Positions 57,509 through 62,424 of a stretch of DNA of 64,000 nucleotides are shown here, piece by piece. The notes beneath the pieces were generated by a model. The model searched no databases. It worked only from the letters and a program-made list of their open reading frames with translations, and was not told where the DNA came from. The translations under genes and the position numbers were made by a program. Source of the stretch: Burkholderiales bacterium (GTDB taxonomy: Bacteria > Pseudomonadota > Gammaproteobacteria > Burkholderiales > SG8-39). Numbering within the stretch: the first letter of the stretch is position 1; each line of letters starts with the position of its first letter. The DNA is taken from contig DASXKY010000058.1 of assembly GCA_036496555.1 (NCBI GenBank), positions 4,115 to 68,114 of the forward strand, read 5' to 3'.

Positions 57509-59440
57509 TCAACTCCTGCGCGCCGGGCAGTGATAAGACGCGAGCGGACGACCATTCGTGTCCAGTTCCGCGACGGCGGTTCGCCTGCCATCCACTTGCG
57601 ATACCGAGAACACATTCTCCGCGCCGTCCCATGCAAGATCCAGCTCGGTGTTGGGGTAGGACCTGGTCCAGATGCCGAAGCCGGCCTGTTCGCTGCGCGC
57701 AATGCCGGCGAGGAATGCCCTTGGGCAGGCGCGCTCGGCCGCATCGAGGATCGCGTCAGCCTGCCCCCGGCCGCGCAAGTAGGCTTGGCTCACTGGCACG
57801 CGCCGCAGCCCGCAACTCATGATGAAGCGCTTAGGCAGGTGGCTCGCCACGCCGACGAGTTGATTCGCCGCCTCCGCGAGCGCATCGGTCTCTTCGGCGC
57901 TCTCGATAGGCAGGCAGTCATCCGCATTCACCGCCAGGCCTAGGCGCCCAAGAACCTCGTTTTTCGCCTCGACCCAAGCCGGGGCCGGACGCGACTGGCC
58001 CGGCTCGAGGCCGTTGCCGCCGAGGGTGCGGGTGCGGCCCTCATAGCGCTCGAGGAGGCTGCGCAGGCGCTCGCCGCCGGGGCCGTCGAGGTTCACGGTG
58101 TAGTGTCCGCGCACCGCAGCGAGCCTGGAGTCCGGATGGAACGAGAGGACGAGGAACGAGTAGCTTTGCCTGTCGATCCCGATGAAAAGCTGCGGCTCGC
58201 TGGCCAGCGCTGCGGGCACCCTGAATTCCAGCCAGTGCCGCGTCCAGGCGTAGGGATCCGCGGGCGACAACCGCGTCGGGCTCACTTGAAGGATCGCGAA
58301 GGCCTGCGCAGCGAGCGCGAGAAGCGCGCAGGCGAGCCATGCACCGCGCGCCAGCAGGCGGCTGAGCACCGCGCCCAGCAGCGGCCCGACTAGGAGCAGG
58401 AGAGCCACCGCGTAGCGCGAGCTGAAGCTGGTTGCAATCCAGAGGAGCAGCGCGATCGCGAAGAACACGAGCAGCGGCGCCAGCGCAGGATTCGGCGGCG
58501 CCGCTTCGGCCGCCGGCGCGCGCGAGACGAGACGCCTCACCCCGAGCGCCGCCAGCGCAGCAGCGGTCAGCAAGATGCGCAGCTCCGGTGCGTTCAGCTC
58601 GCCATAGATTCCAGGTTCGGGCAGCACCATGCGCAGCGGCGCCGTCAGGAAAGCGGCGAGCTCGCGCGGCCGGTAGCGCTCGAAGGAGATGTTTACCGGC
58701 GGGAAATCGGGGGAATGGAACAGCGCATTGAACAGCGGAAACACGGGATTGCCGAACTCACGCCACAGGAGGAACGCCCACCAGCCGCCGGTTACCAGCG
58801 CGCCCGCAGCGGCCCCCGCAGCGTAGGCAGCGAGTCCCTTCGCCCGGTCGCTGCCCATTAGCGGCCAGGCAAGCGCGGCGAGCGCGTAGATGCCGTTGGT
58901 CGGCTTCAAGCCCGCGGCCGCGCCGAGCAGCAGGCCGATCGCCGCCATCCTGCCAGCCGGCCGGCTGCGCAGCGCGTCGCTGCAAAGGAGCGCCGCGGCC
59001 GCGAGCACCGGCAGCGCGGTCTCCACGTCGGTGAAGGTGCGTCCCAGAGCGCTGACGTACGGCACGGCGGCGGCGCCAAGGAGCGTACTCAGGAGCGCGC
59101 CGGCGCGGCCGCATTCGCGCGGCAGCAGCGAGCGAGCGATGAAATACAGAAGCGCCAGCGCGAGGCCCTGGGAAAGCGCGAGTACCGCGCCGATCGCCAC
59201 GCTTTCCCAGCCGGCCGCGAGCATCCAGTAGAACGGCAGGTGCGCCAGGGGATTCAAGTAGCTGTGCAGGCTTGCCCCCATGAAGTCCTGTCCGAGGCGG
59301 CCATGCAGCAGGCTGAAGGCGATGTAGACGTGATAGTGCGACAGGTCCCAGTTCAGGTCCTTGCCGCCGGCGACGCCGAGCAGGACGCAGGCGACCAGCA
59401 GCACGCCGACGATCGCGGCGTCGCGGCGCACGCCCCTCAC
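57509..59440 (-). CDS. Polytopic membrane protein, GT-C-like candidate (643 aa); paralogue of 50552..52513
   Basis: KDLNWDLSHYHVYIAFSLLHGRLGQDFMGASLHSYLNPLAHLPFYW aligns residue for residue with the other copy, and the C-terminal Cys-containing domain is shared. GTG at 59440 overlaps the upstream stop (GTGA). The ATG at 59482 is an alternative start. Confidence 0.65.
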   Translation of the reverse strand: MRGVRRDAAIVGVLLVACVLLGVAGGKDLNWDLSHYHVYIAFSLLHGRLGQDFMGASLHSYLNPLAHLPFYWMLAAGWESVAIGAVLALSQGLALALLYFIARSLLPRECGRAGALLSTLLGAAAVPYVSALGRTFTDVETALPVLAAAALLCSDALRSRPAGRMAAIGLLLGAAAGLKPTNGIYALAALAWPLMGSDRAKGLAAYAAGAAAGALVTGGWWAFLLWREFGNPVFPLFNALFHSPDFPPVNISFERYRPRELAAFLTAPLRMVLPEPGIYGELNAPELRILLTAAALAALGVRRLVSRAPAAEAAPPNPALAPLLVFFAIALLLWIATSFSSRYAVALLLLVGPLLGAVLSRLLARGAWLACALLALAAQAFAILQVSPTRLSPADPYAWTRHWLEFRVPAALASEPQLFIGIDRQSYSFLVLSFHPDSRLAAVRGHYTVNLDGPGGERLRSLLERYEGRTRTLGGNGLEPGQSRPAPAWVEAKNEVLGRLGLAVNADDCLPIESAEETDALAEAANQLVGVASHLPKRFIMSCGLRRVPVSQAYLRGRGQADAILDAAERACPRAFLAGIARSEQAGFGIWTRSYPNTELDLAWDGAENVFSVSQVDGRRTAVAELDTNGRPLASYHCPARRS

Positions 59441-62424: not shown

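Follow-up and report, generated by a model that had tools for sequence, protein, structure and literature searches.

A spermidine synthase-like membrane protein encoded close to pilA in a Burkholderiales genome: a changed SpeE-type active site and a candidate outward-facing alkyltransferase

The window analysed here is a stretch of 64,000 nucleotides (nt) from a Burkholderiales bacterium (GenBank assembly GCA_036496555.1, contig DASXKY010000058.1, positions 4,115 to 68,114 of the forward strand). The gene under study is an open reading frame (ORF) for 995 amino acids (aa) on its minus strand, coding for a membrane domain of the major facilitator superfamily (MFS) type, a domain related to the spermidine synthase SpeE, and a C-terminal helical domain; the active site of the SpeE-like domain differs from that of SpeE in residues that are fixed among its relatives. 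An earlier reading of the letters alone (the sequence-only reading) had described the fusion and had suggested that it could add an aminopropyl or related group to a lipid-linked or periplasmic glycan, or could sense or transport a polyamine. The genes and the overlap at the locus are as follows.

59437..62424, minus strand: coding sequence of the MFS / SpeE-like / helical-domain protein (995 aa)
59437..59440, minus strand: GTGA stop/start overlap with the GT-C-like gene; the same 4-nt overlap is present in the nearest relative (L107)
57509..59440, minus strand: 643-aa polytopic PMT_2-like (GT-C-like) gene, 3' of the 995-aa gene
56885..57352, minus strand: pilA, type IVa major pilin, the conserved downstream neighbour in the clade
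62445..64000, minus strand: GAF/HD-GYP gene, 20 nt upstream of the 995-aa gene; its 5' end lies outside the window

The ORF (59437-62424; protein P0001) begins with ATG. A longer ORF was ruled out, since no ATG, GTG or TTG occurred among the 146 stop-free codons 5' of it (a stretch that overlaps the HD-GYP gene in another frame) and the homologues start at the same position. As the sequence-only reading had stated, the stop codon overlaps the start of the GT-C-like gene: in the GTGA the TGA (59437-59439) shares two letters with the GTG (59438-59440) of the 643-aa gene, and this gene indeed lies next to pilA. Its match to Pfam PMT_2 was borderline (E 1.2e-5, 26.0 bits; cut-off, 26.1). Beyond pilA, two GT2 genes and then a TMEM260-like GT-C gene follow. 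No terminator-like site was found on the minus strand between the HD-GYP, 995-aa and GT-C genes. About 517 codons of the GAF/HD-GYP gene lie inside the window; HD-GYP homologues have 556 aa.

The structure of the 995-aa protein was modelled with AlphaFold2 from an alignment of 91 sequences (mean pLDDT, 92.4; pTM, 0.91). The parts of the protein referred to below are encoded as follows.

61789..62424, minus strand: first half of six transmembrane (TM) helices, residues 1-212, with the near-invariant SGFxGLIYESxWxHYLKLFLGH and Y29-E30 in TM1
61126..61725, minus strand: second six-TM half, residues 234-433, with Y251-E252 in TM7
61051..61113, minus strand: 13th TM helix, residues about 438-458, which takes the chain across the membrane
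60310..61017, minus strand: SpeE-fold domain, residues 470-705, N-terminal beta-hairpin subdomain and Rossmann core
60760..60774, minus strand: motif I, GFGTG; position 554 is Ser/Thr in 91/91 and Asp/Glu in SpeE
60697..60708, minus strand: VEIE motif
60604..60612, minus strand: DDA motif
60538..60558, minus strand: motif IV, SEPSNPW, which replaces D-x-x-D-P of SpeE (Asp to Glu624, Asp to Asn627)
59440..60309, minus strand: family-specific C-terminal helical domain, residues 706-995, with an invariant NSD...P motif
59851-59853, minus strand: Cys858, co-varying with Cys899
59728-59730, minus strand: Cys899, co-varying with Cys858

The relationship of the central domain to SpeE was clear. Pfam Spermine_synth matched residues 532-683 (E 2.5e-14), and the protein scored 89.9 bits against NCBIfam NF037959, 'fused MFS/spermidine synthase' (cut-off, 40). 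The sequence matches of the domain in the PDB were SpeE and aminopropyltransferases only (down to E 6.5e-21 with a profile), and the Foldseek search with the whole model listed only SpeE chains (probability 1.00; TM-score to the target, 0.60-0.72). The strands at 482-516 and the Rossmann core assigned to the model by DSSP are those of the PABS / class I methyltransferase fold. The aminopropyltransferase or methyltransferase fold proposed for the centre of the protein was thus confirmed, and so was the remark that such proteins are annotated only generically: NF037959 was the family hit, and no characterised member of it was found.

Residues were counted in the alignment of the 91 homologues, which come from several phyla, with Thermus SpeE (PDB 1uir) as the reference. 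The motifs quoted in the sequence-only reading (GFGTG, VEIE, DDA and SEPSNPW) all stood where they had been placed; GFGTG was aligned with GGGEG of 1uir, and EPSNP with DLTDP. G551, G553, G555, E574, E576 and D606 were invariant, and because of this the nucleotide- and ribose-binding elements of the SpeE-like fold are taken to be under strong selection. The residues specific to the SpeE reaction are different. In SpeE, the acid of GGG(D/E)G binds the aminopropyl amine of decarboxylated S-adenosylmethionine (dcSAM) and excludes S-adenosylmethionine (SAM); the corresponding position 554 was Ser in 54 and Thr in 37 of the homologues, and never acidic. The two Asp of the SpeE D-x-x-D-P loop are the catalytic base and the diamine anchor. 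Here motif IV (S-E-P-S-N-W-V-S-G) was invariant, position 628 within it being Pro in 90/91 (a single row has P628F), so that Glu624 and Asn627, both invariant, stand in place of the two Asp. The Tyr of the SpeE DExxY(H/Q)E motif positions the attacking amine; D526-E527-V-T-M530 lines up with DEFSY by eye only, and in this line-up the Tyr position would hold Met (83/91). The scores against the NCBIfam polyamine aminopropyltransferase equivalogs were far below their cut-offs (115.9/472, 83.2/260 and 60.2/249.55). Read from the alignment, the active site is changed, not decayed: the SpeE residues have been replaced by a different, equally fixed set. A degenerate site had been named beforehand as a ground for abandoning the idea of an enzyme; what was found is an invariant, non-canonical one.

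The supply of dcSAM was considered next to the residues. The genome of the window carries, on another contig, a canonical fusion of 419 aa with the motifs GGGDGG and DLNDP:

Contig C35, about 31005-32260 (locus L084, 1297-2556), minus strand: SpeD-SpeE fusion, AdoMet decarboxylase (AdoMetDC) and spermidine synthase

Judged by sequence, this fusion is the real polyamine aminopropyltransferase of the genome. Among 41 genomes that carry a relative of the 995-aa gene, AdoMet_dc (PF02675) was found in 20; it was found in neither of the two cultured Geomonas isolates with an orthologue, nor in several genomes of 6-8 Mb. This census is supportive and not conclusive, because many of the genomes are metagenome-assembled and the class 2 AdoMetDC (PF01536) was not searched. 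Since the acid that selects dcSAM is lost and half of the carriers are apparently unable to make dcSAM, the donor, if there is one, is more likely SAM than dcSAM. The aminopropyl chemistry of the sequence-only reading is accordingly unlikely (Ser/Thr at position 554, both D-x-x-D-P Asp replaced, AdoMetDC in 20/41 carrier genomes), and we regard it as very probable that the protein is not a spermidine synthase.

The helices of the model and the hydropathy gave a duplicated 6+6-TM MFS-like domain and a 13th TM helix after it, about 13 in all, which agrees with the many TM helices noticed earlier in the N-terminal half. The two six-helix halves were 32% identical to each other (BLASTP, E 4e-16), so that the protein has the twelve TM helices in two homologous halves expected of the MFS. 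The repeats of MFS proteins can usually no longer be recognised from their sequence, whereas these halves are still 32% identical; the comparison suggests that the duplication of the 6-TM unit (single in PRK03612-type proteins) was fairly recent. The Geomonas orthologue matched Pfam MFS_1 with a score of 35.7 against the gathering score of 33.4 (E 5.9e-9), and a Myxococcales orthologue matched profile positions 3-346, almost the entire profile (E 7e-4). The membrane domain was the best-conserved part (mean identity to the query, 62%; SpeE-like domain, 53%; C-terminal domain, 31%), and its identity never fell below 52% across Burkholderiales, Nitrospirota, Geobacterales, Myxococcota and Gammaproteobacteria. 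Among its polar residues that do not vary are the pair Y29-E30 of TM1 with its equivalent in TM7, Y251-E252, and also E84, E271, R151 and R257; the loop between TM1 and TM2 (WxHYLKLFLGH), predicted to be periplasmic, was invariant or nearly so. The gradient of 62/53/31% would fit conserved chemistry together with variable recognition of an acceptor.

The C-terminal domain (290 aa), the least conserved part, is mostly helical in the model, with only short helices and loops in its first 100 residues or so. The earlier statement that this region resembles nothing known held for the 290 aa: no match was found with Pfam (E <= 5, five homologues), no relative with a domain profile against the PDB sequences, and none with Foldseek against the PDB when the domain was modelled alone (pLDDT, 89.1; best E, 0.85). 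The non-significant Foldseek matches showed a faint resemblance to the TPR fold. A search of 1.8 billion representatives with the domain profile gave 1714 clusters (50% identity), and in all of the 150 best matches listed of these the domain was at the C-terminal end of the protein.

For the side of the membrane, the number of TM helices was odd in either reading, 13 when the two helical stretches of 51-52 residues are taken as hairpins and 11 when they are taken as single helices; the hairpin reading agrees with the internal repeat and with the match to MFS_1, and also with the Gly/Pro turns and with Lys413, which is nearly invariant. The mean number of Lys and Arg per loop in the 91 sequences was 2.1-4.0 for each of the even loops (sum, 17.0) and 0-1.4 for the odd loops (sum, 4.0). 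Exactly two Cys were present in the soluble part of 74/91 sequences. Cys858 and Cys899 were both present in 85/91, and Cys899 was also missing in five of the six sequences without Cys858; such co-variation is the pattern expected of a disulfide. In MFS proteins both termini are usually cytoplasmic, and from this topology, the positive-inside rule and the crossing 13th helix, residues 461-995 are predicted to be periplasmic. We consider it probable that the soluble part faces outward. The sequence-only reading had proposed to predict the side on which the catalytic domain lies; with the loop counts and the Cys pair the prediction is the periplasmic side, and because of this a periplasmic or lipid-linked acceptor is plausible. 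The cytoplasmic location and the dcSAM supply that go with SpeE are thus not what was found here (predicted periplasmic; AdoMet_dc in 20/41).

The family is large, with 6072 significant matches in one search. A scan of one genome per species gave relatives in 548 species-representative genomes, and the following counts of neighbours cover 80 of these loci. Type IVa pilA was located 130-320 nt downstream on the same strand in about 25 of the 80, sometimes in two or three tandem copies. In a clade of 35 rows (99% support) it was downstream in all rows with known context, and the linkage was also seen on three further branches of the tree (L046; L050, Steroidobacteraceae; L075). The order in the clade was GAF-MshEN-PilB ATPase, GAF-HD-GYP, sometimes a TPR protein, the SpeE-like gene, and pilA; at least 11 of the pilA-linked loci had a GT-C/TPR gene after pilA. 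Only the window and the 80%-identical relative L107 had a GT-C gene that separates the SpeE-like gene from pilA. Translational coupling to a GT-C gene, which had been noted for the window, is therefore not general, and GT-C coupling was rejected as a trait of the family. In the other 80% relative (L106), a GT87 GT-C gene and a TPR/GT41 gene were downstream instead of pilA. A survey for co-occurrence with GT-C genes, suggested earlier, had a mixed outcome: a gene of the GT-C/TPR type was within 10 kb in 18/80 loci from several unrelated lineages, but the conserved neighbours of the clade are HD-GYP upstream and pilA downstream. In Geomonas silvestris and G. limicola, the orthologue was within a same-strand array with five GT-C/TPR-type paralogues and two GT2 genes, and 3' of the array were beta-propeller genes and two hexahaem OmcS-family cytochromes; the OmcS orthologue was 3.9 kb downstream of the Geomonas gene (E 2.2e-130 to PDB 6ef8). 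Two other Geobacteraceae (L098 and L100) had a distant paralogue (1053-1057 aa, 28-29% identical, GAGSG at motif I) with OmcS-like cytochrome genes on either side. This arrangement matches the published order GSU2501-2504 of G. sulfurreducens, where mutation of a regulator lowered GSU2502 ('spermidine synthase') along with omcS and omcT (PMC10599522). A Pfam tally of 91 neighbouring ORFs at 56 loci without pilA gave mostly unrelated genes (TPR, 10/91; GT2, 4/91; multihaem cytochromes, 3/91), and at one gammaproteobacterial locus the homologue was among genes for aromatic degradation.

Compared with known systems, the 995-aa protein shares with SpeE (PF01564; PDB 1uir, 1iy9, 3o4f and 1inl) the fold including the N-terminal beta-hairpin subdomain, the glycines of motif I, the ribose-binding Glu, and the adenine-binding Asp. 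Unlike SpeE, it has GxG(S/T)G for GGG(D/E)G and S-E-P-S-N-P-W for D-x-x-D-P, it misses every NCBIfam equivalog cut-off, and its domain stands behind 13 TM helices, is predicted to be periplasmic and is followed by 290 aa of extra domain. With NF037959 it shares the membrane and SpeE-like architecture; the clear 6+6 duplication and the private C-terminal helical domain set the subfamily apart from NF037959 at large. Residues 233-657 were aligned to positions 18-415 of NF002956 (seven-TM SpeE-like, PRK03612), and the 6-TM unit, the crossing helix and the SpeE-like domain are therefore a shared building block. Li, Kurihara, Kim, Liang and Michael (Biochem J 2019) reportedly described gene clusters for MFS-SpdSyn-like proteins and class 1b AdoMetDC; those proteins are said to have a canonical aminopropyltransferase site and adjoining AdoMetDC genes. 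The 995-aa protein differs from such seven-TM SpeE-like or MFS-SpdSyn-like proteins in its changed site and in having no adjacent AdoMetDC gene, about half of the carriers having none that was found.

The fungal NHMT may be regarded as the closest working analogue. NHMT (Aspergillus nidulans AN4663) consists of seven TM helices and a spermidine synthase (SpdS)-like domain without the GxG(D/E)G acid, is a SAM methyltransferase of the endoplasmic reticulum (ER), and acts on His1 of secreted lytic polysaccharide monooxygenases (LPMOs) (PMC10349129). Loss of this acid with retention of the SAM-binding motifs is what marks the SpdS-like protein methyltransferases (PMC10349129), and the 995-aa protein shows the same combination as NHMT and the C-terminal domain of METTL13. 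The likeness to NHMT, taken from its published description, is that a polytopic membrane domain precedes an SpdS-like domain without the acid; the differences are 13 TM helices against seven, a C-terminal helical domain that NHMT does not have, the eukaryotic origin and ER location of NHMT, and the lack of a counterpart here to its acceptor, His1 of LPMOs. PMC10407285 contained nothing on membrane fusions. Another comparison is with accessory genes of pilins (tfpO/pilO and tfpW-tfpX of P. aeruginosa; pglL and pptA of Neisseria): here too a polytopic inner-membrane protein, its soluble domain being predicted to lie in the periplasm, is encoded beside pilA, and a GT-C gene also flanks pilA, at the position of TfpW. 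Unlike the tfpO, tfpW, pglL and pptA products, the 995-aa protein has no Wzy_C, GT-C or sulfatase-type domain, and its gene is upstream of pilA in an HD-GYP operon.

From these data we propose that the protein may be an inner-membrane enzyme of three modules: the 6+6-TM MFS-type domain with the 13th helix, the SpeE-derived Rossmann domain facing the periplasm, and the helical domain. In this scheme SAM, or a sulfonium donor closely related to it, would leave the cytoplasm through the MFS domain and reach the outward transferase domain of the same protein; the SpeE-derived domain would then transfer an alkyl group, most likely methyl or, less likely, 3-amino-3-carboxypropyl, to a nucleophile of an envelope protein that has been exported, or of the glycan on that protein; and the variable C-terminal domain, with its putative disulfide, would probably dock or select the acceptor. 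A self-contained machine is suggested because the transporter-type domain is conserved, the transferase fold is predicted to face outward, the helical domain is variable, and no partner gene is obligatory; the transporter-type domain is also rich in buried acidic and aromatic residues. Sequence evidence supports the domain order, an active site that is altered yet invariant, the neighbourhoods and the conclusion that the protein is no canonical spermidine synthase, and we infer the periplasmic location, the donor, its delivery through the MFS domain, and the acceptor. At loci where the gene stands near pilA, GT-C/TPR genes or omcS, these neighbours suggest that the acceptor is a subunit of an extracellular filament or a glycan attached to one. 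In the lineage of the window it might be the major pilin PilA, or a glycan of the pilin made with the products of the flanking GT-C/GT2 genes; this assignment is tentative. To the whole reading, an outward-facing SAM-dependent alkyl, probably methyl, transferase acting on exported filament proteins or their glycans, we give a probability of roughly 0.35. A more specific form of it is doubtful, namely that the family consists of self-supplying periplasmic alkyltransferases whose MFS domain conducts SAM, which methylate or aminocarboxypropylate PilA in Burkholderiales and OmcS-type cytochromes in Geobacteraceae (or their glycans), and whose C-terminal domain chooses the substrate.

Several points weigh against the alkyltransferase. 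Neither a pool of SAM nor an exporter of it nor an enzyme that depends on it is known to us from the periplasm of bacteria, and the topology is a prediction made with sequence rules. The window protein itself gave no match to Pfam MFS_1 at E <= 5, and the membrane-domain profile recovered from the PDB sequences no solved MFS protein but only a spurious designed coiled coil. No PDB chain of the SpdS-like methyltransferase METTL13 was found with the domain profile at E <= 1, and the domain is therefore nearer by sequence to true SpeE than to the known SpdS-like methyltransferases; for NHMT no solved structure is known. About two thirds of the 80 loci had no pilin, GT-C or cytochrome neighbour, so that the acceptor may be general or a different one. 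In an alignment of 27 adjacent pilins no distinctive conserved acceptor residue was found, only ordinary type IVa features, and no functional study of the NF037959-type family was found in the literature.

Four other explanations were weighed. The outward SpeE-like pocket might bind a polyamine or a SAM-derived metabolite, which the protein would transport or would signal to the HD-GYP protein, thereby tuning cyclic di-GMP (c-di-GMP) and pili. The HD-GYP gene is only 20 nt upstream with no terminator between, it is kept in 20 loci beside the gene for the GAF-MshEN PilB ATPase, and the conserved TM residues E30, E84, E252 and E271 with several Tyr and Trp would suit a cationic ligand; but this linkage is confined to one clade, the cytoplasmic loops (28 residues or shorter) offer little surface for signalling, the putrescine-binding residues of SpeE are precisely those that changed, and an invariant catalytic-type motif IV with the full set of cofactor motifs exceeds the needs of a binding pocket. 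We consider a sensor or transporter of this kind unlikely. A non-catalytic pseudo-enzyme, serving as a membrane scaffold or chaperone that holds exported filament subunits or partner GT-C enzymes during assembly, would agree with the loss of both catalytic Asp of SpeE, with the lack of a known periplasmic donor, with the weak TPR-like fold matches of the helical domain, and with the TPR proteins often encoded by neighbouring genes. The glycines, acidic residues and motif IV are nevertheless invariant across phyla, which is unusual for a pseudo-enzyme, and the best-conserved part being the MFS domain (62% to the query) points to a function with a small molecule; such a scaffold is thus improbable in our view.

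A dcSAM-dependent transferase that decorates, with aminopropyl or a related group, the lipid-linked or periplasmic glycan of the neighbouring GT-C/GT2 enzymes, which is close to what the sequence-only reading had in mind, would explain the GTGA overlap, the GT-C/TPR genes within 10 kb in 18/80 loci and the position of the Geomonas gene inside the array of five GT-C/TPR-type and two GT2 genes; the genome of the window is able to make dcSAM, and a periplasmic position is predicted for the soluble domain. The residues argue otherwise, the dcSAM-selecting acid being Ser/Thr in 91/91 and both catalytic Asp being replaced; AdoMet_dc was not found in 21 of the 41 carrier genomes, the coupling to GT-C is limited to the window and its nearest relative, and most loci have no glycosylation gene nearby. 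This explanation is quite unlikely. A genuine membrane-anchored spermidine or polyamine synthase at the cytoplasmic face, which the Pfam Spermine_synth and NCBIfam polyamine aminopropyltransferase matches and the label 'spermidine synthase' given to homologues in the sources would favour, was rejected as highly improbable on the grounds of the absent defining residues, the equivalog scores far below cut-off, the predicted outward-facing topology, the separate canonical SpeD-SpeE fusion, and the patchy AdoMetDC, not found in half of the carrier genomes.

The 995-aa gene is a member of a named but uncharacterised annotation family, NF037959. Added here are the rejection of the 'spermidine synthase' label at the level of residues (91 sequences), the AdoMetDC census and the co-varying Cys pair, as well as the distinction between the GT-C coupling, which is local, the pilA/HD-GYP linkage, which extends over the clade, and the GT-C/TPR and omcS linkage, which recurs in distant lineages. 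The label is carried throughout a large family and is contradicted by the residues, and metabolic reconstructions should leave the genes of this family out of polyamine biosynthesis. If the transferase domain faces the periplasm and uses a SAM-type donor, SAM chemistry would take place in a compartment where none is known; if true, this would also mean a new route of donor supply, through the fused transporter. Should the self-supplying alkyltransferase prove true, bacteria would have a counterpart of NHMT, and with it the first case in which a SAM-dependent modification of proteins has been shown in their periplasm. Pilins and cytochrome nanowires are the candidate substrates suggested by the links to pilA, GT-C/TPR glycosylation and omcS. 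The gene, with its proposed function, is a solid and testable lead on this very large, unstudied family.

Several observations concern the relatives and their surroundings. In L012-L018 and L075 the major pilin gene was repeated in tandem 130-2000 nt downstream of the homologue, with two or three copies that have diverged from each other, and in one sub-clade (L013-L018) an all-TPR protein of 575-609 aa was encoded between the HD-GYP and SpeE-like genes. The array of G. silvestris (L087, 73-21382) also includes a class I methyltransferase, and one of its GT-C/TPR paralogues matched Pfam PMT_2. In L106, genes for a CHASE2-guanylate cyclase, a metallo-beta-lactamase-fold cyclic nucleotide monophosphate (cNMP) phosphodiesterase and a cNMP-binding/rhodanese protein (269-4230) were upstream of pilB/HD-GYP, so that a cyclic-mononucleotide module adjoins the c-di-GMP module. 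One to three paralogues of the family were present in 20 of 24 other genomes of the GTDB genus of the window, and no member was found in 16 genomes of other families in the order; because of this distribution the gene is patchy and probably mobile over evolutionary time. Ten genomes of the same genus (G070, G071, G074, G075, G078, G081 and G083-G086) had two or three paralogues, about 60/50/30% identical to the window protein, and the genome of the window has one copy of the family.

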